A stretch of DNA of 64,000 nucleotides, from assembly GCA_051382295.1 (NCBI GenBank), contig JBBCAW010000062.1, forward strand, positions 1 through 64,000. Direction: 5' to 3'. Both the position numbers and the translations under genes were made by a program. The notes under the pieces were generated by a model. That model was not told the origin of the DNA and made no database searches. It worked only from the letters and a program-made list of their open reading frames with translations. Below are positions 2,091 through 18,312 of the stretch, piece by piece. Every line of letters starts with the position of its first letter. Within the stretch, counting starts at the first letter, position 1. Source of the DNA: Bdellovibrionota bacterium FG-1. GTDB taxonomy: Bacteria > Bdellovibrionota > UBA1018.

Positions 2091-3908
2091 CTAATGTTTA
2101 CAACAAAACGCATAGACATAAGACTGTAACGACGCTGCCTTCGCCGGATCCACAGATTCACATTTGACCCACCATTGTTGCGACACGAAGGCTGGACCAT
2201 TGATCGACATATAATAATCTATACCACCAGCAATATTACAATTACCTCCACCCCCCAAAAGAATCTCCCCAGCAGGACATGTTGCAGTAACCTTCGCGTG
2301 GCCTGAAGGCATTGGACCGACATCCATGTCTTGCCTATGACACCCATACGGTACAGTGCCTGTCGCCCCAGGCTGACCCAACGTTAATGATCCATAAATT
2401 GAGCTCGTTGAACCATCTAAAACAGCATACTGCTGGGGATCGGCGAGCTTTTTCACGATTAATGCACCAAAAATATTATTCGTACCATCTTTTCCAAGCA
2501 CTAATCTATCTTGGACAGCATCCGTAAGGGCAGGGGGTACGTTTGGACTCATAGCACGTAAAGTCAAATCCCCCTTAGTCGTATCCGACTGAATACTCGC
2601 GGCTTTGCTCGAATCAAACTCGGGCCCACTTCCCGGAGTGTACTTAGCAAATGCAATGACACCATTACTAGTTCCTGTTATTCCAGTAGGCCCTACCACC
2701 ACCGTGCCATCGTTTCGAATCACCATTCGTGATTGGCCACCAGTCGAAAACGTCAAATCATCGAACGAAGGATGCGACTCAATTTTTTCCGTGGGTGCAA
2801 CTAAGTTCCCACCAGCGTCAACACCTCCCCCAAAAGCAAGCATACTATTGTCTGCTTCCAGTCTCGGATTAAGCACCAAAACCCCAGATTTATCCAGCGC
2901 CATCAAATGGGTCGTATTACCTGAACCAGCCTCAGCGACCTGCGTCCAAACAAATGAATTGATCGGTAATCCCAAATTAGGGGACTGAATCGTACCTGCC
3001 CCTGCGCTGCCACCAATATTAAACCACATCTGCTGATCACTGTACCCGATCATATAATCCGAAGCCTGTGGATTTTTATATCCACCGTTTTTGCTATAAA
3101 GCTGCAACCTGGCTCCAGGATAATTGCCAGCACCATACGTTTCTCCTACCGCCCCATATGTACTGGGGGCGCCAGCAAAGTTTGAAAAATAGGGGAAATA
3201 ACAATGCGCAGGTGCAACGGTAAGATACTGACCACCCATAGCTTCGCAAATAGCCTGCGGATCTGTGCTGTCGGAATGACAAGAGTAAATAATGCCTTCC
3301 TGAGCAAGACCTGTCGGCGTGCCATCTAAATTCGTTTCCGGCCCCGTCACTATCGTCAGAGGAATCGGAATGCTCATTGAGAGATTCTTACCCCCTAACG
3401 GAGTAGGCTCCATCGTATTTTTTGTCGCAGTCATACTTAAACTACCTTGATACACGTTGAATGAGTAACTCGTCCCATGATAGGTCCCCGTCACGGATGA
3501 AAACGCAGGCGATTGGGGTGTAAGACTGATGCCACTCAAAGTAAATGATTTGTAATTAGTCCCCACTTTTGCCAGCACCATTGCAGCCGGAGCAGGCCGA
3601 TCAATCTGACTCATAGTTCCCACTGGAGAACCATCATTCTGGTCGATTCCACCAGCAGGAATCCATTTGTAATTGTGGTTGCCGCCCAAATACTTCTTGC
3701 AACTATCATCAAGCGACAGTGAGAGTTTTACGTTCGAAACGAAATTGTTCCAATCCGCGTTGATGGTCACATTACGAGTGGACCGTTGAGAGAGATTTAC
3801 GATCTGCAGAATGCCGATCATCATGATCGAGGCAATCCCCAGCGTAATCATCACCTCAAGGAGTGTCATCCCGTCGATACGACGCAATTCGGACATGGGG
3901 TGTTTCAT
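2091..3908 (-). CDS. Prepilin-type N-terminal cleavage protein with long adhesin-like C-terminus (minor pilin/tip adhesin)
   Basis: G|MTLLEVMITLGI class III signal; fibre-like LTFSTGGQSRMVIRNDGTVVVG segment; Cys-rich end (ATCPAGEILLGGGGNC...YAFCCKH). Confidence 0.75.
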   Translation of the reverse strand: MKHPMSELRRIDGMTLLEVMITLGIASIMMIGILQIVNLSQRSTRNVTINADWNNFVSNVKLSLSLDDSCKKYLGGNHNYKWIPAGGIDQNDGSPVGTMSQIDRPAPAAMVLAKVGTNYKSFTLSGISLTPQSPAFSSVTGTYHGTSYSFNVYQGSLSMTATKNTMEPTPLGGKNLSMSIPIPLTIVTGPETNLDGTPTGLAQEGIIYSCHSDSTDPQAICEAMGGQYLTVAPAHCYFPYFSNFAGAPSTYGAVGETYGAGNYPGARLQLYSKNGGYKNPQASDYMIGYSDQQMWFNIGGSAGAGTIQSPNLGLPINSFVWTQVAEAGSGNTTHLMALDKSGVLVLNPRLEADNSMLAFGGGVDAGGNLVAPTEKIESHPSFDDLTFSTGGQSRMVIRNDGTVVVGPTGITGTSNGVIAFAKYTPGSGPEFDSSKAASIQSDTTKGDLTLRAMSPNVPPALTDAVQDRLVLGKDGTNNIFGALIVKKLADPQQYAVLDGSTSSIYGSLTLGQPGATGTVPYGCHRQDMDVGPMPSGHAKVTATCPAGEILLGGGGNCNIAGGIDYYMSINGPAFVSQQWWVKCESVDPAKAASLQSYVYAFCCKH

Positions 3909-3964: not shown

Positions 3965-4360
3965 TCAATTACTAATCGATGGAAAACCTGACACAGGTGG
4001 CGCAATTTGTGTCGGCAACGGGATTTGTGTCGGCAACGGGATTTGTGTCGGCAACGGGATTGGTGTCGGCAACGGGATCGGCGTCTTTAAGAGTACTTTA
4101 TCAGGCGAATTCCCATAGCCTTGCTTTTGATCCAAATTCAGCTTTTGCAAAGCGGCTTGTTTTAGTTTTAAATTAGCCTTCGCCGCAATACATTCATCTC
4201 CGCAAAAATGATCTATGGGTACTTGATAGAATTTTTTTTCGGGCGGTGCCGGTGCCATATCTCCATCTTTATCCGCCCGCGCCTCCCCCCCGAACACGCC
4301 AAACATCATCATCCCCGCCACGACCCCAACAACCCCGACCTTACTAAATAAATTCTTCAT
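3965..4360 (-). CDS. Secreted protein with (P/Q)IPLPT repeats
   Basis: Start re-set to ATG 4360 (GGGAGG SD); signal peptide ending EARA; Pro/Thr repeats. Confidence 0.6.
   Translation of the reverse strand: MKNLFSKVGVVGVVAGMMMFGVFGGEARADKDGDMAPAPPEKKFYQVPIDHFCGDECIAAKANLKLKQAALQKLNLDQKQGYGNSPDKVLLKTPIPLPTPIPLPTQIPLPTQIPLPTQIAPPVSGFPSISN
4005..4085. repeat. 18-bp tandem repeat ATTTGTGTCGGCAACGGG x4.5 (coding)
   Basis: Units start at 4005, 4023, 4041 and 4059, with a partial unit at 4077. Confidence 0.95.
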
Positions 4361-4485
4361 AAACCCCTCCCCTTTTTCCATGATTCTACGGTCAACTCCA
4401 CATCTTCGCAATGCGTCCTTACAGACACGGCTGTATCTATTGGATATTTACCGTCAAAATTCTGCCAATTACCTACTGGTTGCGA

Positions 4486-5234: not shown

Positions 5235-5588
5235 GTGGCTCGAAGTCATCTTTACGAAATGGCCCTTCGTTTGCAGCAAAAGCTCACTCAGCGCCTCACC
5301 GCTTACATGGTCGACCTTGCTGATGGGCGCGACATCGGTCGCTACGCACGAGGAGAGCGGAAGCCTCATCCTGGCACGCAAATGAAGCTCCGCGATCTGT
5401 TCAGCCTAGTATCTATGCTGACTGAACGAGAAGATGCCGAAACGATCCAGGCTTGGTTTATGGGGCGCAACCCTGAGCTCAAACATCGGGCCCCCGCGCT
5501 GCTGCTACATGAGAATTTCAACGTAAACTATGAGCAGGTCCGAAAGGCGGCCATCAAGTTTTCAGGAAGGTACCCGCTTACTTCGTGA
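5235..5588 (+). CDS. Xre/MbcA/ParS-like antitoxin (orphan)
   Basis: IGRYARGERKP HTH-like part and IQAWFMGRNPEL..RAPA.LL C-terminal motif; the stop codon lies inside repeat R1. Confidence 0.65.
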   Translation: MARSHLYEMALRLQQKLTQRLTAYMVDLADGRDIGRYARGERKPHPGTQMKLRDLFSLVSMLTEREDAETIQAWFMGRNPELKHRAPALLLHENFNVNYEQVRKAAIKFSGRYPLTS

Positions 5589-5603
5589 TGCCCACCGCGT
5601 CAC
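5569..5603 (+). repeat. Cassette-boundary element R1
   Basis: GGTACCCGCTTACTTCGTGATGCCCACCGCGTCAC. Confidence 0.95.
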
Positions 5604-5605
5604 GC

Positions 5606-5995
5606 CTAACCGGTGCCTTGTAAAATAACCTCAGCCCAGACATGAAGCTTCGAGATCACTTTCTTCACGGCATGGCGATCGATCGAGACCACGCTGTTTC
5701 CGTCATAACGAAATTCAACCGCGAACGGTCCCAATTCCCCCAACTCTTCGAATAACACCGGACAAACCAGCCCATTTTGAACCATCAGATCGTGCAAAAG
5801 CATTAAATCATGGGTTTTCGGAAATAGGATCGACTTTTCCATTAACACGGATTTAATAAATTTTTCGGCCGCCTGTTGTGCATGAAATCCCCAAATAGAA
5901 TCTGCGATATCGGAATCATCGATGAGCTTATCTAAAAGCAACTCATCCTCCATCGCTTTTCGAAAAAATAGCCCCGCCTCATTATGCTGCGTCAT
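5606..5995 (-). CDS. HEPN-domain toxin
   Basis: GFHAQQAAEKFIK, FPKTHDL and AVEFRY motifs; overlaps the upstream MNT gene. Confidence 0.85.
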   Translation of the reverse strand: MTQHNEAGLFFRKAMEDELLLDKLIDDSDIADSIWGFHAQQAAEKFIKSVLMEKSILFPKTHDLMLLHDLMVQNGLVCPVLFEELGELGPFAVEFRYDGNSVVSIDRHAVKKVISKLHVWAEVILQGTG

Positions 5996-6308
5996 AAAGA
6001 ACTTTTCCTTCTGTTCGCGCAAAAAAGTGAAGCGTACTCGGAATTTTGGAGCGATCCTCGAACTCAGCTTCAGACACCACAAGAATATCCATAGGTACCA
6101 AGATCCCTCGAAGCGCCATCCGCAATCGAATGGACTCTCGGTATTTAGATACCACCTCCGACTCGATCACCAGTATATCCAAATCCGAATCCGCATGGGT
6201 ATCCCCGCGCGCAAAAGAACCAAACAAGATGATCTTCCTCGGCTGAGCCGTTGCAACCAACCTCGTTACAATTTCCTCAAGCATGTCTTGGGGGTTTGGG
6301 AGCCGCAT
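5982..6308 (-). CDS. Minimal nucleotidyltransferase (MNT) antitoxin
   Basis: IILFGSFARG...DSDLDILV; start uncertain (ORF extends to 6377). Confidence 0.85.
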   Translation of the reverse strand: MRLPNPQDMLEEIVTRLVATAQPRKIILFGSFARGDTHADSDLDILVIESEVVSKYRESIRLRMALRGILVPMDILVVSEAEFEDRSKIPSTLHFFARTEGKVLYDAA

Positions 6309-6459
6309 CTTTTTAGACTGCCTTTTTACTCTACGATCGTCAACCGTCTCCGCCCCGTGATTTTGATGAAAAACCATCGTCCTCGTGTCACTATTTTTTC
6401 GAGCTTGTTCAACTCAATGTTTATACCGTAAAAGCCCCAAGCCATAGTCCCTCGCTGTT

Positions 6460-6511
6460 AGATAAAAACTTTTACCTTAAGTCTGGTTACACAAGGTAAA
6501 AGTTTTTATCT
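6460..6511. repeat. Perfect 19-bp inverted repeat with 14-bp spacer
   Basis: AGATAAAAACTTTTACCTT (6460-6478) / AAGGTAAAAGTTTTTATCT (6493-6511). Confidence 0.9.
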
Positions 6512-6753
6512 TAGCTTATTAGGCCACCTAACATAATGATTTATAACGCATTTAGATTGTCGGCCTGAGTGAGACTTCCAAGATTCAAGATGGGATGAAA
6601 GCAGCAATTCCGCGAAAGCCAGGTGTTTATAAAATGAACGTGCCGGTAAATCCTTCCGCCGTAAAGGCCCCGTGTGGTCTTCGGTCGGTCGAGATAGGTA
6701 ATCGACCACTCAGCGGGACAGCTACCCCGGAATGAGGTGATTAATGGGTAATG

Positions 6754-6788: not shown

Positions 6789-7028
6789 ATGAGAACGACC
6801 ATTGAACTCACCAAAGAGCAAAGGGCGGAACTTCTGAGGCTAGCGGCTAAACGCGGCCTCAAGGGGTTTTCATACATCATCCAAGAAGCCCTGGATGAAT
6901 ACCTCAAGCAAGAGTCCCAGAAGTTGGAGCTGATTGGCGCGGCTCTCGGCCTCAAGGGGGCCTTTCAAGGCAAGGCCGCCGAAGAATTTGAAGAACGAAC
7001 CCAGGAACTGAGGAGCCATTGGCGATGA
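6789..7028 (+). CDS. CopG/RHH antitoxin (VapB-like)
   Basis: MRTTIEL...S.IIQEALDEYL ribbon-helix-helix pattern; overlaps vapC. Confidence 0.75.
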   Translation: MRTTIELTKEQRAELLRLAAKRGLKGFSYIIQEALDEYLKQESQKLELIGAALGLKGAFQGKAAEEFEERTQELRSHWR

Positions 7029-7411
7029 TGATTGCAGACTCGGATGTACTGATCGATTTTCTTCGCGGCAAAGGGGCTGCCGATCGGATCGCGTATGAAA
7101 TTAAAACCGGCGGTCTTCACACAACAGCAATTTCAGCATTTGAACTTTGGGCGGGAGCCAAAAGTGATCAGCAGGCCGCCGTCGTTGAAACGCTCTTGGC
7201 GGCGATGACCGTTCTGCCATTGGAACGCGAAAGCGCTAGACGTGCTGCGAAGATACGACGGGAATTGGATGGTAAAAATTCTTCAATCGGGATGGCCGAC
7301 TCTCTGATTGCTGGCATCTGTTTAGAGCGCGACGGCGTTCTCATCACGCGCAACAAGAAACACTTTGAGCGGGTTCCAGGAATTAAACTCACGCATGGCG
7401 GTGAGGCGTAG
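7025..7411 (+). CDS. vapC: VapC PIN-domain toxin
   Basis: IADSDVLIDFLRG...ISAFEL...DSLIAG...LITRNKKHF. Confidence 0.9.
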   Translation: MMIADSDVLIDFLRGKGAADRIAYEIKTGGLHTTAISAFELWAGAKSDQQAAVVETLLAAMTVLPLERESARRAAKIRRELDGKNSSIGMADSLIAGICLERDGVLITRNKKHFERVPGIKLTHGGEA

Positions 7412-7424
7412 GACCCAGGTAAAA

Positions 7425-7459
7425 CGTATCAGGTTACTTCTTGATGCTCACTGCATCAC
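7425..7459 (+). repeat. Cassette-boundary element R2
   Basis: CGTATCAGGTTACTTCTTGATGCTCACTGCATCAC. Confidence 0.95.
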
Positions 7460-7589: not shown

Positions 7590-9092
7590 ATGCGCTCGGA
7601 GCCAACCCACCTTCTCCCCCCCCTTCTTTATCCTAGCCTCAACAGCTCTGAACGCAAAAAATTAACGCTCCTTCGTAAGAAGGGCCAAATTCGGCTGATC
7701 GGTCCCAGGCTCTATGCTTCAGTTCCACTCAAACAAGTTGCGACTGTAGTACGGGCTAACTGGGCCCAGATCCTATCCGCACTTTTTCCGAATTCGTTTC
7801 TCAGCCACCGCACTGCTTTTGAATACAAGCCGAGCCCTGAGGGAGAGGTTATTCTTACGGGAACAACCAATCGCGAAATCAACTATCCTGGTCTGCGACT
7901 CAGATTCATTCGTGGACCGGAACCGCTTGAGGACGATCCAAAATTTTTAACGCTTCGGGCTTCTTCACAGGCACGAATGCTGCTCGAAAACCTTTCCACA
8001 ATCCGAAAAGGGGCGAAGCCAAAAACCGCTTCCCGCGCTCAGATCGAAATGCGGCTTGAACAGCTCGTTCGTGATGGGGGTGAAGACGCGATCAATGCCC
8101 TGAGGGATCGCGCGCGTACGATTTCAAAGCAATTCGAGTGGAAGATGGAATTTGAAAGACTCGACGGCTTGATTGGCGCCATCCTGGGTACACGGTCCTG
8201 CCGCACGATCACAACAGCCTTGGCGCGGGCCCGTGCGATAGGACAGCCTTACGATCCAGCTTGCCTAGAACGAATGCAACTGCTCTTTGGTGAACTTCGT
8301 AACCGTGCTCTGCCCGCGATCCCAGATCGTTTCGTGGCATCAGGCCATTTCAAAAATAAATCTTTTTTTGAATCCTATTTTTCGAACTTCATCGAAGGCA
8401 CTACCTTTGAGCTCGAGGAGGCCGAGGATATCGTTTTTAATAAAAAAATCCCGCGTAATCGGCCGAAAGACGCCCATGATATTGTCGGAACTTTTCAAAT
8501 TATTTCAGATCCAAATGAAATGCGCCGGACGCCTCAGGGGTTTGATCAACTGCAAAACCTTTTAATCTCCCGCCACCACACTTTAATGAAGTATCGTCGC
8601 GAAGCGTCTCCGGGAGAATTCAAAAAAAACGTCAATCGCGCGGGGGATACCGTGTTTGTCCATCCCGATCTAGTCGTCGGAACCTTGAAGAAAGGACTCG
8701 AGCTTTATGACGACCTTACTCCTGGCCTTCCGCGGGCTATTTTCATGATGTTTTTGATCTCCGACATTCATCCATTCGTAGATGGCAATGGTCGCATCGC
8801 CCGAATCATGATGAATGCTGAGCTGGTTTCGTCAGGTTTCTCGACGATCCTAGTCCCTAACGTCTACCGTGAAGACTACCTCTTGGCCCTTCGTTCATTG
8901 ACTCGACGGCACCGGCCACGAGTACTGGTAGACATGTTGCTTCGAGCCCAGAGATTCTCAAATCTTGAGTTTTCGCCCTATGCTAAAATCCTCAAAGAAC
9001 TTCAACGTCGCAATTGGTTTCGAGAGCCCGAAGACGCTCGAAGAGGTATCAGGTTACTTCCTGATGCTCACTGCGTCACAAAAACGCCATGA
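7590..9092 (+). CDS. Fic-domain protein
   Basis: Canonical HPFVDGNGRIAR; SNFIEG inhibitory-like motif; last codons read through R3. Confidence 0.9.
   Translation: MRSEPTHLLPPLLYPSLNSSERKKLTLLRKKGQIRLIGPRLYASVPLKQVATVVRANWAQILSALFPNSFLSHRTAFEYKPSPEGEVILTGTTNREINYPGLRLRFIRGPEPLEDDPKFLTLRASSQARMLLENLSTIRKGAKPKTASRAQIEMRLEQLVRDGGEDAINALRDRARTISKQFEWKMEFERLDGLIGAILGTRSCRTITTALARARAIGQPYDPACLERMQLLFGELRNRALPAIPDRFVASGHFKNKSFFESYFSNFIEGTTFELEEAEDIVFNKKIPRNRPKDAHDIVGTFQIISDPNEMRRTPQGFDQLQNLLISRHHTLMKYRREASPGEFKKNVNRAGDTVFVHPDLVVGTLKKGLELYDDLTPGLPRAIFMMFLISDIHPFVDGNGRIARIMMNAELVSSGFSTILVPNVYREDYLLALRSLTRRHRPRVLVDMLLRAQRFSNLEFSPYAKILKELQRRNWFREPEDARRGIRLLPDAHCVTKTP
9045..9079 (+). repeat. Cassette-boundary element R3
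   Basis: GGTATCAGGTTACTTCCTGATGCTCACTGCGTCAC. Confidence 0.95.
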
Positions 9093-9155
9093 TCCCAGAA
9101 AACCATTCCAATTTCATCCCACTTCAGTCTATAATTGGAATGGTTAGGAGGGCAA

Positions 9156-10358
9156 ATGCCCCATTCTCGACCCCGATACGCGTTTTCAGCCTTGGAACGA
9201 AAGCTCAAATTTGCACGCGTGGTGACCCTTCAAGGAGCCAGGCAGTGTGGAAAGAGCTTTCTCGTCAAACATTTTCTGGGACAAACCCATCCGAAAATGG
9301 TGCTCGAGCGCTTTGATTTGGGCGAAACTCGAGCTTTTGCCACTGAAAATCCGGATCTCTTTCTGAGGGAGCGCATGAAAGCAAACCCCTTGGCGATTGA
9401 TGAGGCTCAAAGAGTGCCGGCCATTTTCGATGCGATCAAAGTCCAAGCCGATGAGAACCCCACCCCAGGGCGCTTTGTGCTTCTAGGGTCGACCGAGTTT
9501 TCACATCAGTTTCGAATTCAAGAATCCCTCACGGGCCGCATGAGTCGACTCAGGCTCTTTCCGATGACCTTGGGTGAGTGCCTGGAGCTACCCAACACCA
9601 AGGGGGATTTGCATGGAATTCTCTTTCGATCCCCCCGCGCCCAGGTCGATTCGGTCCTCACCATGCTGGAACGGGGCGGAATGCCCGGGATCTTTGCGGT
9701 TCGCTCGGATGAAGAACGAGAGGGACTCTTTGAAGATTGGGTCAACCTGACCTGCAATCGCGACCTTCATCAAATCCCAGGCCTCAGACTGGATTCAGAT
9801 CTTGCACACGATCTCCTTCGGGCGATCGCCACGATCGAGGAACCCATTGCGATTGAACTCGCTAAAAAATTGCACGTTTCACCCAAGGTGGTTGAAAAAC
9901 ATTTAAAAGCGCTGGAGACGCTTTTTGTGATTCAACATCTCAAGCCCCATGCCGCTGGCACCGGAAAAAATCGCTTTTATCTTTGCGACGTCGGAATTGC
10001 ACACTTTCTAGGCGGACGTCAGCAGCGCTTGCTCGAGACCTGGATTTTTCAAGAACTCAGTGCCAAGCGAGCACTCTTACCCGCTCCCTCCAAACGGCAG
10101 ATCACTTACTATCGCACCTCCAAGGGTTCAACGCTTCCTTTCGTCGTGGAGGATCAAACTCAAGGCGTTACCCTCGCTCTTCAGGCGCGTTATAAAGAAA
10201 AGGTCGACAAACGAGACCTCGCCATTGTTCAAAGCTTCAGACAAGCCCTCGGCCGTGAATCCTCAAAAAATAACTTCCACTCCTATTTGCTGCTGGCTTC
10301 GGCCTCGCGCCAAAAAATCGATGAGACCGAGGTTTTGCCCTGGGGGGCGCTCATTTAG
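9156..10358 (+). CDS. AAA_14/DUF4143-type ATPase
   Basis: GARQCGKS Walker A, IDEAQR Walker B, ESLTGR, GGMP, YLCDVG; start ATG 9156 after AGGAGG; C-terminal nuclease-like motif degenerate. Confidence 0.85.
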   Translation: MPHSRPRYAFSALERKLKFARVVTLQGARQCGKSFLVKHFLGQTHPKMVLERFDLGETRAFATENPDLFLRERMKANPLAIDEAQRVPAIFDAIKVQADENPTPGRFVLLGSTEFSHQFRIQESLTGRMSRLRLFPMTLGECLELPNTKGDLHGILFRSPRAQVDSVLTMLERGGMPGIFAVRSDEEREGLFEDWVNLTCNRDLHQIPGLRLDSDLAHDLLRAIATIEEPIAIELAKKLHVSPKVVEKHLKALETLFVIQHLKPHAAGTGKNRFYLCDVGIAHFLGGRQQRLLETWIFQELSAKRALLPAPSKRQITYYRTSKGSTLPFVVEDQTQGVTLALQARYKEKVDKRDLAIVQSFRQALGRESSKNNFHSYLLLASASRQKIDETEVLPWGALI

Positions 10359-10391
10359 GTACAGGTTACTTCTTGATGCTTGCCGCGTCAT
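10358..10391 (+). repeat. Cassette-boundary element R4
   Basis: GGTA-CAGGTTACTTCTTGATGCTTGCCGCGTCAT; overlaps the TAG of the ATPase. Confidence 0.9.
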
Positions 10392-10446: not shown

Positions 10447-13400
10447 ATGCTCTCGAATTCAGCCCCCACTGCCCCGTCCCGGCCACCCGCCCGAGAACCC
10501 GGCCGCAATGACCGCTGCCCCTGCGGAAGCGGGCGCAAATACAAACGTTGCTGCTCAGGCAGAGTGATGTCCCCTACCGCCCATTCATCCTCTGAAAAAA
10601 TGAATCATGGCTTTTGCCTTCCTTCCGAATCCAAACTTCGCGTCTACACCCTCCTCAAACTGAAAGCGGCCTTTTTTGACCGAGACTCTTTTCCATTGGC
10701 CGAAGAAATTCTCTGCGACCTGGAGAGCAAGCAGGGGGTTCAGGCCAAACGCCTCACGACCGGCGAATTGGATTTGTCCTTCACCTATGACGGGATCAGC
10801 GATGACGACTACACTCCGCTGAAGCCGGCACACGTCCGCATTCAGGAGTCAAAACCCTCAGAAGACTTTGTCGCTCGTTGTGATTGCCAAAATGGACGTC
10901 AAGACCGCCTTTGCGGTCATCTCATGGCTTCTTTAATCCTCCTTTGGCGACTTCTCAATCGCGACTACAAAGGAATTAAACACCCACCCCTCGAAGAGTA
11001 TTTGGCTGAAAAGGTCGAACCCCAACTCGACGTGCTCCTGGGGCGTACCCATCGGCCAAATCCAAATGCTGGCATCTCCTTGGCCGCTGTGGTTTTTTGC
11101 CTATCCGATGCCTCCGAGCCTCTCAAACCAAAAGAGGCTTCCATCTCAGGATCCATCCCGCCTATGCGGTCCGGTGACCTTCACTCTCTCATTCAAAGAG
11201 CTCGATTGCCCCTGACTTCGTCAACCCTGTCGCCAGATGATTTTCCTGCCACCTTAAGAAGTCAACTTGAGCACCCCGAATATTCTTACTGGAACAATCC
11301 CCAGACCTTGCTCCGCGAACACCTCCAATACCAGTTTTCAGATGGGACTACACTCACCGCGCTAGAATTGCTCCGTCATCGATTTCTAAAAAAGGTTCCC
11401 AAAGACCTCTTACCTCTTCGCGAAACCTCCGAAGCCCCCATCCCCGGATGGGCCCATCTAATCTTGCCAGAGGCCCTCAGTGCTCGCTACTGGTATGACA
11501 AAGACATGGAGCGCGCCTTCATCGGACTCCTCGCCCGCGCACTGAAAACGAAATCAAAAAGTGCAAATGCTCCTCGGGTCGCCTTCACCTCCAGCGTCCT
11601 CCGCGAACAGAAACGATCCACCCTTGAAATTCAAGCCATCGAATTCGATGCCCCGCCAGCAGAAGGATCCAAATCCCACTGGCAACTCATCCCGAGTCCC
11701 GAAAGTCGCCCCAACGAAGCTCAACTCAAATTTTCCGGAGATTCACAACACTGTTGGACCATCGACGGCAGCACGCTGCGCTTCCTTCCGGGGCCCGCGA
11801 CCGCTTCCGCGCGCCCAAAATCCTCTACTCACATCATCGCCAACCAAGAACAAATCACCGACGAAGTTCAAGCGCTGAACAACTTCTTGACCGCCCGAGA
11901 CCTTCCAGGCGTCACCCTCCCCGAGCCACTGCGACTCAATGCCACTGATCCCTCCGTCGTGCGCCCCGAGATCCGTCTCGATTCGACGGATACTTTTCGG
12001 TTCGCCCTGTTTTTGCCCGCATTCAATACCCGCGTCTGGAACCCTAATCCGGAAGCCCGCAGCTGGATCTATCTCCTCAAGGACGGCATCGGCGCCGCAG
12101 CCCCCGTTGATAAGTCCGAACTTGCACACAATCATCGAGGTTCCAAGCGAGACGCCGATCTCAAATTACTACGCCACTGTGGCTTTGCCTCCTGTTTATT
12201 TTTAGAGACGGCCTCCTACGCTCTCGAAGGAAAGTCATCATCGGGGCAAGAATTTGCCAATCCCAAGGATTTTAAAGCCTGGCTCAAAACCAGACTCACC
12301 ACGCTCGCCCTTGAAATTATCGACAAAACCGAGCCTCTCGAAACCGTCTACTCCCATCGCGTGGTCGAGTTTATCTGGCTGTTGGCCCAGCAAATTCAGG
12401 ATTCACTGACAAAACCCCGCGCTTGGCACTGCCTAGTCGCAGGCAACTGGCTGACCCTCGAACAAGGATCTTTGCCGATCGCCCGTTTCATACTCCAACT
12501 TCTGCGGGGAGCCGCACTCCGCACGGGCGGGCTTTGCTTTACCAAGGCCCGCACCCCCGCGGCTTTTCAAGGTACGACTCAATTTACCCCGATTCTAGTA
12601 GCCCCAGCAGACTCCTCAGAAAATTCCGAAGATCTTTTGATCTCGAAATTTGGAATCGAAGAACCTTTCAAAGTCTGCCTCCCCCTGCTTGCTCATGGCT
12701 ATGACCTCTATTGGAAGGGTAAGCCCTTAGGACTTCTCAATGCTGATGATTTAAAAACGGTGTTTGACCTGACGGGCTCAAAATCACTCGATTGGTTTGA
12801 GCTCAATCCCAAAGTCTTTTTGATGGGCAAGCAAATCAGTCGCGACGCGTTTAGCGAAATCGCTCGTACTGGCATGATGGAATTTCAAGGCCAGCTCTAT
12901 TTGATCCCCGCCGCCAATCTGCCCTCGATGAAGAGACTTTCCAAATTCTGGGAACGCCTAGGCGGAAATGGGAATGCTTTAGGCAATTTTAACGAGGAGT
13001 CCGGTGGTTACCACCGACTGCCCAAAAGCCAAGCGCTCGAATTTCTGGCGCTGGAAAAAGAACTGGGCGCGGAGGTGCTGGGTGAAAACGCGGAATGGAA
13101 AGCGGTTCGCGAATTTTACCACTCACTTGATTTGCCCCGCCCCCCGCTTGAGGTTCCGAAAACGATTTTGGCCGAACTCAAGCCCTATCAGAAACTCGGC
13201 GTGCAATGGCTTTTGGACCTCCATCGCTTGCGCCTCGGGGGCATTTTGGCCGATGACATGGGCTTGGGTAAAACCCTGCAAGCGCTCGCATTTTTAGAGA
13301 TTTTACGCATTCAAAACCGCCTGGGTCCAAGTCTAATAATCGTCCCCACCAGCCTGACCTGGAATTGGAAGAGCGAAGCCGAGCGCTTTACCCCCTCACT

Positions 13401-14634
13401 TCCAATCCGAGTTTTTGATCCCAAGGCCAAGACGGCAATCGAGCAAGACTTGGCCGCAGGCACCCTCAAACTTTTGGTGGTCACCTACGGCTTACTCCTC
13501 GAACATCAAGAATGGTTTGAGAAGCAAACCTCCGGCGATCCGCGCCGCTGGGACGTGGTGCTCCTTGACGAAGCTCAAAACATCAAAAACATTCGCGCCA
13601 AACGGACCGAGGCCGCGCGCAGTCTCAATGCCGCTTACAAATTTTGTATGACGGGCACGCCGCTTGAGAATAATTTGGGTGAGCTTTATTCGCTCATGGA
13701 CCTCGTGGTGCCGGGTTCGCTGGGCGAGCTGACCGGCTTTCGTTCGAAATATGAGGGAATTTCAGACCCTCAAGAAGCGGCGATTGAGTTTGGCTTTCTC
13801 CGGTTACTCCTCAGACCTTTGATGCTCCGGCGAACGAAATCCCAAGTTTTAATGGAATTACCGCCCAAAACTGAAAGTCGGGTGAATCTTCCGCTTGAAG
13901 CCAAACAACGCAAAATCTACCGAGATGTGGCGCTTTCGTGGAATCAACAAGTGCAGGCCTCGATTGAGCAATATGGTGAAGCGCGCAGTCAATTGGTGAT
14001 GCTGACGGCATTACTGCGGCTGCGCCAAGTTTGCTCGGATCCCGCCACGGTGCCGGGGGTGAAATATCCAGGTATTTCGCCCAAAATGGATCTGTTGGCG
14101 GAGTCCCTTCAAGAAATTCTGGAAGCGGGCGAAAGCGTCCTGGTGTTTACACAGTTTGTGGGGACCCTGGAGCGGTTACGGACGCATTTGACCTCGCTTG
14201 GAATCGAAACTCTTTGTATTCACGGCGCCATTTCGCGCGCGGAACGCGAGCGGATTTTGCGGCAGTTTCAAGATCCGCAAGCACCCGCGCAAGTGCTGAT
14301 CATGACGCTTAAAACCGGGGGCGTGGGCCTCAACCTCACGCGCGCAAGTTACGTGTTTCATCTAGAGCCGTGGTGGAATCCTGCCGCTGAAAACCAAGCC
14401 ACAGACCGTGCCCATCGCATTGGACAGGAGCGCCCGGTGCAGGTTTATCGCTATGTGATGCAAGACACGGTGGAAGAAAAGATCGAGCTCCTCAAGGCGC
14501 GCAAGGCTGCGGTCTTCGATGCGGTGATGGTGGAATCGGCGGATGGCGCGGTCGAAGGCACCCCGGGCCTGAGAACGCTCAGTCAGCGGGATTTTGAGGT
14601 GTTGTTGTCCGAAAGGTATCAGGTTACTTCGTGA
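10447..14634 (+). CDS. SEC-C + SWIM zinc finger + SNF2-family helicase
   Basis: GRNDRCPCGSGRKYKRCC; CDC...CGH; LADDMGLGKT, DEAQ, TGTPLEN, QATDRAHRIGQ; stop inside R5. Confidence 0.92.
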   Translation: MLSNSAPTAPSRPPAREPGRNDRCPCGSGRKYKRCCSGRVMSPTAHSSSEKMNHGFCLPSESKLRVYTLLKLKAAFFDRDSFPLAEEILCDLESKQGVQAKRLTTGELDLSFTYDGISDDDYTPLKPAHVRIQESKPSEDFVARCDCQNGRQDRLCGHLMASLILLWRLLNRDYKGIKHPPLEEYLAEKVEPQLDVLLGRTHRPNPNAGISLAAVVFCLSDASEPLKPKEASISGSIPPMRSGDLHSLIQRARLPLTSSTLSPDDFPATLRSQLEHPEYSYWNNPQTLLREHLQYQFSDGTTLTALELLRHRFLKKVPKDLLPLRETSEAPIPGWAHLILPEALSARYWYDKDMERAFIGLLARALKTKSKSANAPRVAFTSSVLREQKRSTLEIQAIEFDAPPAEGSKSHWQLIPSPESRPNEAQLKFSGDSQHCWTIDGSTLRFLPGPATASARPKSSTHIIANQEQITDEVQALNNFLTARDLPGVTLPEPLRLNATDPSVVRPEIRLDSTDTFRFALFLPAFNTRVWNPNPEARSWIYLLKDGIGAAAPVDKSELAHNHRGSKRDADLKLLRHCGFASCLFLETASYALEGKSSSGQEFANPKDFKAWLKTRLTTLALEIIDKTEPLETVYSHRVVEFIWLLAQQIQDSLTKPRAWHCLVAGNWLTLEQGSLPIARFILQLLRGAALRTGGLCFTKARTPAAFQGTTQFTPILVAPADSSENSEDLLISKFGIEEPFKVCLPLLAHGYDLYWKGKPLGLLNADDLKTVFDLTGSKSLDWFELNPKVFLMGKQISRDAFSEIARTGMMEFQGQLYLIPAANLPSMKRLSKFWERLGGNGNALGNFNEESGGYHRLPKSQALEFLALEKELGAEVLGENAEWKAVREFYHSLDLPRPPLEVPKTILAELKPYQKLGVQWLLDLHRLRLGGILADDMGLGKTLQALAFLEILRIQNRLGPSLIIVPTSLTWNWKSEAERFTPSLPIRVFDPKAKTAIEQDLAAGTLKLLVVTYGLLLEHQEWFEKQTSGDPRRWDVVLLDEAQNIKNIRAKRTEAARSLNAAYKFCMTGTPLENNLGELYSLMDLVVPGSLGELTGFRSKYEGISDPQEAAIEFGFLRLLLRPLMLRRTKSQVLMELPPKTESRVNLPLEAKQRKIYRDVALSWNQQVQASIEQYGEARSQLVMLTALLRLRQVCSDPATVPGVKYPGISPKMDLLAESLQEILEAGESVLVFTQFVGTLERLRTHLTSLGIETLCIHGAISRAERERILRQFQDPQAPAQVLIMTLKTGGVGLNLTRASYVFHLEPWWNPAAENQATDRAHRIGQERPVQVYRYVMQDTVEEKIELLKARKAAVFDAVMVESADGAVEGTPGLRTLSQRDFEVLLSERYQVTS

Positions 14635-14649
14635 TGCCCGGCGCGTTAA
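14615..14649 (+). repeat. Cassette-boundary element R5
   Basis: GGTATCAGGTTACTTCGTGATGCCCGGCGCGTTAA. Confidence 0.95.
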
Positions 14650-14893
14650 GAGACCTCAGAACAGCGCATCAAGTGTCACGTCTGAATGAACCAATCGTCC
14701 ATAGTACACGTTTTGCGTTACCCCCCTGGTTGTGACCAACGAATCCAGCCCTAAGGCCGACTGAATCTTACTCACATGCTTGAGGCAAACCCCTTCAAAC
14801 GTAAAACCGGCCTCTTCAAGATATAAACCGCCAAATCATAAATAATAAACACATGATTTGGCGAACTATAGACAACCTATAATCCGCCAAATC
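14650..14893 (-). pseudogene. Miniature triple-deleted copy of the 16349-17961 ATPase cassette
   Basis: Four colinear blocks matching 16349-16441, 16667-16739, 16917-16930 and 17886-17961. Confidence 0.9.
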
Positions 14894-14909
14894 TACAGAG
14901 AATCCAACC

Positions 14910-16265
14910 TCAGTCGCTAGGCCTAAAGACCTGATCCACGGCATACACTGGCCAGCTCTCGAGGTTATAGCGGGCGCGGGCTCGTCCTTTGCCGGTCATC
15001 ATCTCGACATCGATTTGTTGCTTCACAGGAGACGAACTATCAAAACGAATAGCCTGTTTCAATTTTTTTTCATGCATGAATTGGTGCAAGGATCTCAACG
15101 ATCCGGACTTTCCGGCCTTCACCTCGAGCGGCATGACCCGCCCCCCCTCGGACCAAACAAAATCAATTTCAGCGTTTCCGGCGCTCCCGTCTCGCAGCCA
15201 ATAAAACAGTTCCGGAAATGGCCGCGCATGCTGAATCAAATGTTGCGCCACAAACTGCTCAACGATGGCCCCTTTTTGAAGCCATAGCGCATCAGCACCC
15301 TCATTAACATCCTCCCACTTGAGCCCCATCGAAGCGTTCGCTAGCCCCACGTCTAAAAAATAGAGTTTATAAACCTCATCTGACTTTCCTGCGGCCAACG
15401 GCACGCCCGAGCAATCGGAGTGAAAGACGGGCAACACGACTCGCGCTTGGATCAAAAGCTTGATTGCATTTTTTAAATACTTGGACTGCACGTCTGCGGT
15501 GATATTGGAGTACTTGATTTTTTGACCCAATGCTCGAGGTACGTAATCAAAGACACGATCAAGTCGCCCGATCTCAGTCTTTTTGGCGTACTTCGGAAAG
15601 TCGTCCCGATAGGTTTCCAGAATCGATTGCTGCACCCGACGAACCTCCAGCATGGAGCCACTTTCAGAGTAAGCCCGCACGGCCTCAGGCATTCCCCCCA
15701 CAAAGAGGTATTCGCGCCATTTTCGAAGTAAAAGTTCATGTTCCTCTGGAGAAACCGAGCTTGTCCGAATTTCATTCAATCGCTCCCAAAGCTGCTCGCC
15801 TCGGGTAGCCTGCAAAAACTCCCCAAAACTCATGGGCCCCAAGTGAAGATACTCGATACGGCCGACAGGCATGGAAAACTGACCTTCCTCAATCGCAAAT
15901 TCGAGTAAGGACCCGGCGGCAATGACGGGGATCTTCGGGGCCTCCTCGTAAAAGTACCGCAACGCCTCAAGTGCCTGGGGATTACCCTGAATCTCATCGA
16001 GAAACAACAACGACCGCTGAGGTGTAAAGCTCTTACCGACGGTCGATTCGATGTCCCTTAAAATTTGCTGAGGATCGAGGGTTGCGAAGGACTGAAGTAA
16101 CGGCCGCTTTTCGAGATTGATCTCAAGCAGCTCCAGCCCCATCGAGGCGGCAAACTGGCGGACGAGTGTGGATTTGCCGACCTGACGAGCACCCCGCAAA
16201 ACGAGGGGCTTTCGATGAGCGGACTTCCACCAGGAGGCTAATCTGTCTTCAGAAGAACGATACAT
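14910..16265 (-). CDS. AAA_14/DUF4143 ATPase with C-terminal PD-(D/E)XK-like motif
   Basis: GARQVGKS, FLDEIQ, PVGR, GGMPE, EIDFV...PLEVKAG. Confidence 0.9.
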   Translation of the reverse strand: MYRSSEDRLASWWKSAHRKPLVLRGARQVGKSTLVRQFAASMGLELLEINLEKRPLLQSFATLDPQQILRDIESTVGKSFTPQRSLLFLDEIQGNPQALEALRYFYEEAPKIPVIAAGSLLEFAIEEGQFSMPVGRIEYLHLGPMSFGEFLQATRGEQLWERLNEIRTSSVSPEEHELLLRKWREYLFVGGMPEAVRAYSESGSMLEVRRVQQSILETYRDDFPKYAKKTEIGRLDRVFDYVPRALGQKIKYSNITADVQSKYLKNAIKLLIQARVVLPVFHSDCSGVPLAAGKSDEVYKLYFLDVGLANASMGLKWEDVNEGADALWLQKGAIVEQFVAQHLIQHARPFPELFYWLRDGSAGNAEIDFVWSEGGRVMPLEVKAGKSGSLRSLHQFMHEKKLKQAIRFDSSSPVKQQIDVEMMTGKGRARARYNLESWPVYAVDQVFRPSD

Positions 16266-16313
16266 ACCCCTATTTTAGTCTAAATTAGACCAAAAGATAC
16301 CCCTATTTGAGTG

Positions 16314-16348
16314 GGTACCCGCTTACTTCGTGATGCCCGGCGCGTCAA
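16314..16348 (+). repeat. Cassette-boundary element R6
   Basis: GGTACCCGCTTACTTCGTGATGCCCGGCGCGTCAA. Confidence 0.95.
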
Positions 16349-16354
16349 AAAACC

Positions 16355-17836
16355 TCAGAATAGTGCATCCAGTGTCACGTCTGAATGAACCAATCGTCCA
16401 TAGTACACGTTTTGCGCTACCCCCCTGGTTGTAACCAACGAGAGAAAGATCTCTTTGCGCTTTCGCTGGGACTTTCGAAAAACGTCCATTTTTCGCTCGA
16501 GCTCTGCTGCGTAGGACTTGTCGATCACAAACTCATTTTCACTATACTTAAGCTCACAAAGCGTCACCACAGAATCAGCGCGATCAAAAAGTAAATCAAC
16601 CTGCGCACCGGATTCTTTCGATTTTTTTGGCGGCATATATCGCCAGGTTCCGATTTCGCATTCACCCGAATCCAGCCCTAAGGCCGACTGAATCTTACTC
16701 GCATGCTTCAGACAAACCCCTTCAAACGTAAAACCGGCCCAACTCCGCCAAGCTGGCGTTCCGCGCTTTTGCATCCAATACCGGGACGGCGTCCCAGCAA
16801 AGAGTCCCTTGGGCGCCGACGCAATCCATTTTAGATAAAAGTAACAGTATTCATCTATTACCCTGAAAAACATTTCCTTCTTTTTTTTTCCATATGGCAC
16901 GAAACTTGAAATAAATCCGGCCTCTTCAAGTTCCCGAAGCCTTTCGTTAAGCCAACCACCCGAGGTGAGATGCAAGCTCGAATCGATTTTAGCATTTTGA
17001 ATCAGCTCGGTTCTACTAATACCATACCGATGGCGAGCAATTTCCTCAAAGAGACGATATTGCACTCTAGCCTCTGAAAACAGAGAAGAGAATAGCCTTT
17101 GATATTCTTCACGAAGCAGACCATCCCTGGAAAAGCATACCTGATCAATAATTTGAGCCGCAGATTTCCCCCTTTGTGCTTTTTGAAGATAAAAAGGGAC
17201 GCCCCCAAAAGCCATGTACAACTCCAAAACCTGCTCCCGACTCAATTTTACGTTTCGGCTATGAAGGTATTCTTCAGTTTCAGCAAGAGTAAACGGCTGC
17301 AGCTGTATCGTTTGCGTGATTCGGTTATGAAGGCCGCCCTTTGCATGAATCAACTTTTCGATCATCCATGATGCAGCGGATCCACACAGCACGATTTTTA
17401 GCTGAGGCAATAAATTCCATTCGGTGTTCCAAAAATGATCAAGCGCCTGAAGTAAGCCGGATTTTGGCGTAGCCAACCAAGGGAGTTCATCCAAAAACAA
17501 TACAAATCGATCTCGTTTCTTTCCCTTTTTTACCTCATCAGTAAACATTCGAAAAGCGGCGTTCCAATTAGGCACTCGTTGAATCGAAATCCCACCATAA
17601 AAAACTGTCTGAAGCGCCGAAGTAAAGATTTCGAGTTCTTCTTCCATCGTGCCGTCCTTCAGTCCCACGACCTCCATATACCCCCCCTTTCTCTTGAGGG
17701 TTTCTCTAATGAGTTCAGTTTTTCCGATACGGCGACGACCATAAACTGCAACAAGCTCTGCTCGATTGGATGCCCAAGCCTGTTGAAGCAGGGTTTTCTC
17801 AGCCTTCCGACCCACAAAAATCTCTTTTGGCTCCAT
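16355..17836 (-). CDS. ATPase_2 (archaeal-type) ATPase with wHTH and C-terminal nuclease-like domain
   Basis: FVGR..E, YGRRRIGKT, FLDELPW, LCGS, GGVPFYL, QVDLL...LCELKY; start re-set to ATG 17836. Confidence 0.88.
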   Translation of the reverse strand: MEPKEIFVGRKAEKTLLQQAWASNRAELVAVYGRRRIGKTELIRETLKRKGGYMEVVGLKDGTMEEELEIFTSALQTVFYGGISIQRVPNWNAAFRMFTDEVKKGKKRDRFVLFLDELPWLATPKSGLLQALDHFWNTEWNLLPQLKIVLCGSAASWMIEKLIHAKGGLHNRITQTIQLQPFTLAETEEYLHSRNVKLSREQVLELYMAFGGVPFYLQKAQRGKSAAQIIDQVCFSRDGLLREEYQRLFSSLFSEARVQYRLFEEIARHRYGISRTELIQNAKIDSSLHLTSGGWLNERLRELEEAGFISSFVPYGKKKKEMFFRVIDEYCYFYLKWIASAPKGLFAGTPSRYWMQKRGTPAWRSWAGFTFEGVCLKHASKIQSALGLDSGECEIGTWRYMPPKKSKESGAQVDLLFDRADSVVTLCELKYSENEFVIDKSYAAELERKMDVFRKSQRKRKEIFLSLVTTRGVAQNVYYGRLVHSDVTLDALF

Positions 17837-17890
17837 GGTCACACCCCCCTTTAGCCTAACAATACAACGGTATCTCGCAAAACAGAAGAT

Positions 17891-17961
17891 ATAATCCGCC
17901 AAATCTAAAATAATAATCACATGATTTGGCGTACTATAGGCTACCTATAATCCGCCAAATC
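17891..17961. promoter_or_regulatory. Operator-like boxes ATAATCCGCCAAATC x2 plus inverted GATTTGGCG
   Basis: Direct copies at 17891 and 17947, inverted at 17923; conserved in the remnant at 14822-14893. Confidence 0.6.
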
Positions 17962-17967
17962 GATTTG

Positions 17968-18002
17968 GGTACCCGCTTACTTCGTGATGCCCGCCGCGTC
18001 AC
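17968..18002 (+). repeat. Cassette-boundary element R7
   Basis: GGTACCCGCTTACTTCGTGATGCCCGCCGCGTCAC. Confidence 0.95.
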
Positions 18003-18312
18003 GAGGTCGGGTGCGTTCTCGAAAATATTGATCATGAATGGAGGACGGCAGTTGTTTGAGCGACTTTGCGAGGATCCCCCTTAATTCATCCAGGTAGAAA
18101 CATCTCGGATTCCATTCGTATACGCGGGTACGACCCACGAGCCGGCTTGACAAAACCCCTTCCAACTCGAATTTTTCGAGCTGCTTTTGCACCTGTCCCA
18201 CTGCCACGTCAAAAGCTTTTGCAATGCCCCTTGGATAACCCGACCCGTAGTTCTCAAGGTACAAAAGAGCCTTTTCTGCGGTCTCACTGCCAAAAAGTGT
18301 GGATATGATCAT
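17977..18312 (-). CDS. Winged-helix (ArsR-like) regulator
   Basis: YPRGIAKAF...VQKQLEKFE..GVL.SR.VGRTRVY.WNPR; AGGAG SD; C-terminus (DAAGITK*) is encoded by R7. Confidence 0.75.
   Translation of the reverse strand: MIISTLFGSETAEKALLYLENYGSGYPRGIAKAFDVAVGQVQKQLEKFELEGVLSSRLVGRTRVYEWNPRCFYLDELRGILAKSLKQLPSSIHDQYFRERTRPRDAAGITK

Follow-up and report, generated by a model that had tools for sequence, protein, structure and literature searches.

Seven direct repeats in an accessory gene cluster

The window analysed here is a 64-kb stretch of contig C62 from Bdellovibrionota bacterium FG-1 (genome G000; other genomes carry G-numbers, contigs of G000 C-numbers and individual loci L-numbers). The genome is a draft assembly of 158 contigs (97.7% complete, 5.01% contamination), and its genus contains no second genome. 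The element considered is a 34-nt direct repeat found in seven copies, numbered R1 to R7 in coordinate order. By sequence comparison, these are copies of an end-repeat of the REP (repetitive extragenic palindromic) or TIR (terminal inverted repeat) type, belonging to a TnpA-Y1 enzyme related to the RAYT (REP-associated tyrosine transposase) and TIRYT proteins. All seven lie in one orientation on the forward strand, start at 5569, 7425, 9045, 10357, 14615, 16314 and 17968, and form an array of 12.4 kb. A 16-nt pattern with up to three mismatches gave eight matches where 1.55 were expected, a number reached in none of 100 shuffles.

The left halves of the repeats are of two types, as proposed in the initial annotation. 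R1 (5569..5602), R6 (16314..16347) and R7 (17968..18001) are B-type, R7 being the same as R1 at 35 of 36 nt. The A-type is found in R2 (7425..7458), whose first base is C, in R3 (9045..9078) and in R4 (10357..10390), whose left half is damaged by the loss of bases. R5 (14615..14648) combines A-type positions 1-9 with the positions 16-17 and the loop of the B-type, and is probably a hybrid.

The cargo of the array was annotated with Pfam (26 of the 134 open reading frames (ORFs) of the window) and PADLOC, and several cargo genes match PADLOC candidate-defence models. On the left, a 117-aa ORF (5235..5588, forward strand) without Pfam match, which we take to be antitoxin-like, stops inside R1. 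It is followed by a nucleotidyltransferase and HEPN pair (5606..6377, reverse; PF18765, PF05168), then by a PIN-domain gene with a short ORF upstream (7019..7411, forward; PF01850). A Fic-domain gene (7590..9092, forward; PF02661, PADLOC PDC-S04/SoFic) reads through R3, which takes the place of the gene 3' end found in the G008 homologue (L123). Next come an AAA_14-DUF4143 ATPase gene (9135..10358, forward; Pfam, PDC-S01) and a SEC-C/SNF2 helicase gene (10447..14634, forward; Pfam), whose stop codon is provided by R5. Beyond R5 lie a gene remnant described below, a second AAA_14-DUF4143 ATPase gene (14910..16265, reverse; Pfam, PDC-S01, 2e-146), an ATPase_2-family gene (16355..17920, reverse; Pfam, PDC-S27, 4.5e-168) and, at the right end, a 111-aa ORF (17977..18312, reverse) with a weak match to PDC-M05A, whose 3' end is clipped at position 35 of R7.

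The repeats adjoin a gene for a TnpA-Y1 enzyme

Elsewhere in G000, one copy of the repeat is present at the 3' end of a Y1 gene (C78:5433-6092) encoding a protein of 219 aa. This protein matches NF047646 (REP-associated tyrosine transposase) with an E value of 2e-20 and 73 bits, below the cut-off of 80, and E. coli TnpA-REP (PDB 4ER8) with an E value of 2e-7. PF01797 is its sole Pfam match at E<=0.05, and the same Pfam search detected no helix-turn-helix (HTH) tail. The residues of the HUH motif, NHFH in the G000 enzyme, and of the Y-x-x-NP motif of the catalytic tyrosine are invariant in all eight aligned proteins. The repeat occurs within 200 nt of the gene at 12 of 33 homologous Y1 loci, and eight of these carry it on both sides, inverted and with the 5' ends outward; some inverted match between the flanks exists at 24 of 32 loci. 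The 34-nt layout of the repeat was found at 16 of 32 Y1 loci, as compared to two of 64 sides in the opposite orientation, with a pattern that fixed several of the positions scored and missed some known copies. Since the repeats adjoin the Y1 gene and stand inverted on both sides of it in other Oligoflexia, we assigned them to the Y1 enzyme.

The genomic distribution of gene and repeat was compared in a class-wide set of 127 genomes, which include relatives and are not independent. The repeat pattern was present in 17 of them and a Y1 gene (E<=1e-20) in 36; the gene was found in 14 of the 17 pattern-bearing genomes against 22 of the 110 others. In its exact form, the pattern retrieved 55 loci from 10 species genomes, all titled Bdellovibrionota or Oligoflexia. 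On a tree of 32 Y1 proteins (the remnant L025 excluded), the repeat-flanked label required six changes, for a mean of 9.2 after shuffling, and five of 500 shuffles gave a value as low. As many branches are unresolved, no monophyly is claimed for the repeat-flanked genes. The Pfam Y1_Tnp search of G000 listed nine other genes, the C78 gene being below the cut-off. Seven weak Y1-like ORFs of another family were also observed on C33, C1, C41, C61, C98 and C130, none of them beside this repeat. At six other loci (L162, L167, L169, L171, L185 and L025), the Y1 gene stands just after a tRNA-like sequence identified by eye, with the repeat in between; some of the Y1 genes so placed have the repeat on the tRNA side only.

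Structure and subtypes of the repeat family

A profile scan detected 23 copies of the 34-nt repeat in G000 and none in the reversed control. Seven of these lie in the 12.4 kb of the array and 16 in the other 4.43 Mb, mostly as single copies at the 3' end of a core gene or tRNA-like sequence. Most copies follow a sense-strand 3' end. G000 contains singlets only; inverted doublets were observed in G032 and G029. One or few left-half subtypes are found per genome: type A prevails in G000 and is the type that adjoins its Y1 gene, while type B prevails in another genome (L044, L049, L055, L080). The left-half types therefore mark lineages, not cargo, which disagrees with the earlier proposal that the left half is a tag of the upstream gene. 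Seen in this way, the array resembles a block of A-type repeats (R2-R4) placed inside B-type DNA (R1, R6, R7), with R5 at the border.

The repeat consists of a 13-nt mini-palindrome, a run of T, a variable middle and six conserved terminal bases facing the gene. A T-G mismatch in the stem is conserved in 129 of 144 copies. The right-hand hairpin arm (TGATGC) is found in only five of 26 gene-flanking repeats, and the six terminal bases keep their fixed distance in repeats without this hairpin. Column counts revealed no GT[AG]G tetranucleotide at the hairpin foot, no lagging-strand bias was detected (8 versus 7 independent G000 loci), and Rfam gave no match in window positions 1-22000.

Between the two hairpin-like halves lies the core, TTACTTC in R5 and R6, which the initial annotation had found to fit the overlap of a tyrosine recombinase. 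An overlap of 6-7 bp used by an enzyme of the integron, Xer or phage type could account for the rough inversion of the A-type left half and the TGATGC box around six bases, and for the identity of positions 10-15 in 18 of the 23 G000 copies; the genome also has 27 matches to such recombinases. However, the inverted symmetry, seen in folded A-type copies, is absent from B-type and G032-type copies, TTACTTC occurs in nine of the 144 copies, and positions 10-16 take 29 forms among them. The best match to IntI (TIGR02249) reaches 80.5 bits for a cut-off of 265. None of the recombinase matches lies on C62, the nearest to any repeat copy being about 2.5 and 5.3 kb away, and the gene that the repeats flank is instead of the HUH/Y1 class. 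A tyrosine recombinase thus appears very unlikely. The resemblance of TTAC to the IS608 cleavage site, noted at the same time, had pointed to the right class of enzyme, the HUH class, although TTAC is not conserved across the family.

Two further observations concern the ends of the repeat and its targets. In the G018 copies (L115, L129, L132, L137-L148), position 34 is followed by a conserved extension of about 19 nt. The end of this extension is similar to the 3' end of a repeat of another type, which flanks the Y1 gene of L027; the G018 copies are possibly a composite of two repeat types. In relatives, other TIR-like doublets are found right after the same core genes, a ridA-like and a carboxylase gene (L290, L294); the ends of these genes could be common targets.

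New joints map to the ends of the repeat

Homologues without repeat were used to locate the joints between the repeats and their surroundings. With identities of 65-85%, these homologues place the joints to within a few bases. New joints were found at the two repeat ends, positions 1 and 34/35, often clipping the 3' ends of genes. At the outer end, a C97 paralogue 85% identical over 357 nt ends 7 nt before R1, four more bases matching by eye, and a G002 homologue of the promoter upstream of R6 matches to 16312. Outer joints were also obtained for R3 with the G008 Fic homologue, for the SNF2 gene at R5 with 13 homologue loci, for SpoVR in G029 (all 24 orthologues are longer) and for KsgA and RidA (11 of 11 orthologues each). 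At the inner end, the G002 homologue of the gene downstream of R7 matches from 18002, which is position 35, and an inner joint was likewise found at the AAA gene of C8. Judged from these alignments, the joints are sharp at both ends of the repeat.

The genes flanking ksgA remain neighbours in several relatives, indicating that the repeat can be gained without accompanying DNA. At L023, whole repeats are found whose flanks differ on both sides. At another locus, a whole repeat stays with an upstream gene that we take to be dapA-like, while the downstream genes differ; of this locus (L045, L204, L200), two examples are in G095 and one in G002, and each is followed by a different gene.

R5 is probably a hybrid repeat

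R5 and R6 are followed by homologous DNA and preceded by unrelated DNA, in agreement with the initial annotation: they are 91.4% identical over 128 nt, and the 40 nt upstream match at four positions only. The 11 differences are at positions 5, 7, 9, 33, 36, 38, 48, 51, 57, 104 and 120. The right halves, described before as the same, are indeed identical from position 10 to 32 and differ at position 33. The DNA after R5 (14649..14893, reverse strand) is what remains of another, diverged allele of the entire R6-R7 ATPase module, reduced by internal deletions to four blocks: 14615-14742, 14740-14812, 14802-14820 and 14818-14893, corresponding to 16314-16441, 16667-16739, 16912-16930 and 17886-17961, respectively. 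The three deletions are joined at microhomologies of 3, 6 and 3 nt, all within 210 nt. Six of the eight coding differences between the remnant and the module are at third codon positions, indicating that the allele diverged while it was still a gene.

An assembly chimera at R5 is conceivable in a draft genome with the contig number and contamination given above. Nevertheless, the DNA after R5 is not a copy of the R6 flank, being a distinct allele with three deletions. The six or seven identical core bases that A and B repeats share would be too few for a k-mer misjoin, and had the two types shared all 23 bases, the hybrid would be real anyway. We consider an artefact highly improbable.

Several observations suggest that R5 is a secondary hybrid, A-type on the left and B-type on the right, that crossed over at positions 10-16 (14624..14630, forward strand), between the last left-half difference at position 9 and the first right-type marker at 16-17. 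CG at positions 16-17 is found in all five copies that have C at position 9, and in only one of the 15 A-left copies, namely R5 (Fisher test, p=4e-4). Positions 16-32 are identical in none of the 91 pairs formed by the other A-type copies. A second pair of sites, at L072 in G002, shares the right half and about 50 nt at 89% identity, and one of these sites has no left half and joins the end of a methyltransferase gene at about positions 11-13, as is also the case in G095. In this pair as in R5 and R6, the right half with its hairpin travels with the downstream DNA, as the initial annotation had inferred; its companion inference for the left half was not supported. L072 could equally represent a whole repeat that lost its left half. 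Among 178 copies, the R5/R6 and L072 pairs are the only ones that share downstream DNA without being parts of a doublet.

The resemblance of R5 and R6 could also have arisen without exchange in the core, either by movement of a whole repeat with the downstream module followed by conversion of its left half to the resident type, or by joining of an intact A-type R5 to the module at 34/35. Position 33 of R5 is T, as in eight of 14 other A copies, which counts against a boundary in the core, and R5 and R6 differ in addition at positions 36 and 38. The whole repeats of L023 and the terminal six bases kept at a fixed distance without the right hairpin, as expected of a cut site, also agree with this alternative. 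It requires, on the other hand, that positions 16-32 match by chance or that a further conversion took place, and by our own arithmetic a rough likelihood ratio of 2-10 favours a boundary at 10-16 over 34/35. We thus regard exchange outside the core as improbable and the core hybrid as likely. The earlier placing of the exchange in or near TTACTTC is in this respect retained as the most likely origin of R5, although the homologues show that the usual joints are at the repeat ends. From a single hybrid, neither the usual place of cutting nor the enzyme responsible can be deduced. A and B copies have no longer stretch in common than positions 10-16, and three microhomology deletions are adjacent, so that short-homology recombination explains R5 as well as a dedicated cut would.

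Possible modes of assembly of the array

The explanation that we favour, with moderate confidence, is that end-repeats of the Y1 enzyme mark the seams of modules and that R5 is a later hybrid formed by short-homology recombination. The enzyme would act on an exposed coding strand and would join the outer end of the repeat to the 3' end of a gene or tRNA, either alone or with DNA attached to the inner end, so that the repeats would come to mark the seams of accessory modules. Successive joints of this kind may have built the 12.4-kb toxin-antitoxin/ATPase cluster from a resident A block (R2-R4) and an imported B block (R1, R6, R7). R5 would then have arisen by recombination between directly oriented A and B copies in the longest stretch that they share, most simply through the same short-homology deletion process that cut the adjoining module three times.

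Several points weigh against this explanation. The repeat is on one side only at four of the 33 Y1 loci, G000 among them. A search for guide-target complementarity or covariation gave, in 228 tests, a best p of 0.004, not significant after correction, so that no cut site could be derived. The 178 copies include a single R5-type hybrid and a single half-repeat pair. Finally, an enzyme-driven cassette process would account at least equally well for the seven copies in one orientation within 12.4 kb and for L130 in G029, where two identical direct repeats enclose an AAA_14 gene.

Such a process could rely on cutting by the Y1 enzyme in the core itself, for instance at CT 13-14, with excision of single-stranded circles between direct repeats and their insertion at another repeat; this would be the cassette unit of the initial annotation, operated by an HUH enzyme. 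The position of the core between two hairpin-like halves, the R5 hybrid, the joint without left half in L072 and the direct repeats of L130 are consistent with this possibility. E. coli TnpA-REP cuts single-stranded substrates at CT 5' or 3' of the hairpin and recombines them in vitro, as described in PMC3333891 and PMC8266576. Moreover, of 24 G000 copies (the 23 plus the half repeat of C64), eight have an AAA_14 gene within 350 nt, compared with 2.6% of ORF ends. Against core cutting, new joints are at the repeat ends and the dapA-like locus keeps the whole repeat with its upstream gene. CT at 13-14 is present in 117 of the 144 copies, many of which were retrieved with patterns that fixed CT. 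The eight AAA_14-adjacent copies derive from three loci only, and the repeat is found at only six of 51 AAA_14 genes, indicating that it is not required for the spread of these genes. One of seven module ends (R1 right with R2 left) would remain mismatched, the same count as with intact repeats. We consider core cutting rather unlikely.

In its broader form, this idea would have a domesticated HUH transposase running an integron-like system, in which toxin-antitoxin and defence-candidate modules excised as single-stranded circles between direct end-repeats are stacked into arrays; the cut would fall between the two hairpin halves of the repeat, and R5, L072 and L130 would be scars of the reaction. 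Such a system is possible, and we retain it tentatively. If it exists, it would provide a host function, gene shuffling, for the little-studied TIRYT or group-1 RAYT enzymes; the host role of RAYT-type domesticated transposases is presented as an open question in 10.1101/119735. If only the end-joining explanation that we favour is true, the repeats would be a new family of lineage-specific sequences contributing modestly to genome plasticity. The locus offers a defined enzyme, naturally occurring subtypes of a 34-nt substrate, a candidate cargo array and joints mapped at three positions (1, 10-16 and 34/35).

Comparison with known systems

By description, the repeat and its gene match the TIRYT/TIRtrons of Di Nocera et al. 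2013 (PMC3733652), defined as a Y1 gene between terminal inverted repeats that have no GTAG tag; inverted flanks are present here at the 24 of 32 loci mentioned above. As in the TIRYT families described there, the repeats are moderately abundant, single or doubled, and partly self-complementary. The motif GGGGWSAS, reported for some TIRs only, is exact in the homologue L027 and matches the A-type left half at six of eight positions. Unlike TIRYT, the enzymes considered here have about 218-219 aa, no HTH tail by Pfam, and F-G instead of F-Q/W-Q and Y-V-Y-R-N-P; they also differ by the direct-repeat arrays around cargo genes, which the accessible text of PMC3733652 does not describe. TIRYT probably corresponds to TnpA-Y1 subclass 2.1 of Quentin et al. 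2018 (PMC6006769), which was reported to have no REP-like structures. Its HuH motif, NH[YF]H/NHVH, includes the NHFH of G000. Proteins of this subclass have a C-terminal HTH-like domain and a median length of 238 aa, in contrast to the G000 enzyme, in which Pfam detects PF01797 only.

The REP/RAYT systems of E. coli and Pseudomonas, as presented in PMC3333891, PMC8266576 and 10.1101/119735, share with the present one a single-copy gene for a HUH/Y1 class-2 enzyme, inverted flanking repeats with their 5' ends outward, dispersed extragenic copies at gene 3' ends that often provide stop codons, doublets (here in G032 and G029) and the conserved T-G stem mismatch. Capture of neighbouring genes by the REP system has been proposed (PMC3333891), as has a link of TnpA-REP to lanthipeptide genes, later called unresolved by its authors (10.1101/2020.03.09.984088). 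In contrast to REP sequences as described in these sources, the repeat has no GTAG foot, its hairpin is optional and located 17 nt from the 5' end, G000 has singlets only, and seven direct copies bound protein-coding modules.

Integrons and CALINs (clusters of attC sites lacking integron-integrases) resemble the array in having direct repeats between promoter-bearing toxin-antitoxin or defence-like genes and stop codons inside the site. They differ from it, since here no IntI exceeds the cut-off, cargo is found in both orientations and the same repeat is dispersed beside core genes. Inspection by eye for attC end boxes did not reveal any.

As in IS608, conserved terminal bases are found at a fixed distance from the hairpin. 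Unlike IS200/IS605 elements, the ends are inverted copies, with no distinct left and right pair in direct order around tnpA, and neither guide-target pairing nor lagging-strand bias was detected. The enzyme fold and the single-strand, strand-asymmetric hairpins are common to both; the peel-and-paste mechanism of IS608 is described in PMC8266576. In the literature searched, outside of which most subscription papers fall, we found no report of these repeats in Bdellovibrionota or of a cassette array run by a Y1 enzyme.

Further features of the cargo and the window

Both outer genes of the array (5235-5588 and 17977-18312) are clipped at the repeat and are without the partner ORF that follows their homologues (C97 and L115, respectively). 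We presume that these gene pairs are of the toxin/antitoxin kind; Pfam gives no match. A class-wide DNA search, in which two candidates per genome were scored, detected cargo homologues of 65-75% identity, and at the corresponding edges of these the repeat is absent. A metagenome scan for close relatives of the array returned 13 loci, none carrying the cargo of the window. G000 has 62 AAA_14 matches, 50 of them above the cut-off alone, most of them away from repeats. On contig C64 (L018), three AAA_14 genes accompany one full and one half repeat, as does a paralogue of the pilin-like gene found at 2091-3908 of the window; the locus is possibly a second array, or else a copy from another strain.

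The interval 17886-17961, 5' of the ATPase gene, contains operator-like repeats, both direct and inverted; the homologues in G099 and G016 have comparable ones, and autoregulation of the ATPase gene is possible. Between the nucleotidyltransferase and PIN modules, an inverted repeat with arms of about 19 nt is present at 6460-6511; a cassette model would expect an end-repeat there, and none was found in this interval. A resemblance to a Xer half-site at about 6527-6554 found no support. Five 18-nt tandem units lie at 3987-4094, within the ORF at 3965-4411. Other direct repeats, each in two copies of 61-100 nt with 86-93% identity, were observed at 878-945/1960-2027, 1015-1075/2020-2080 and 19202-19301/21429-21528.

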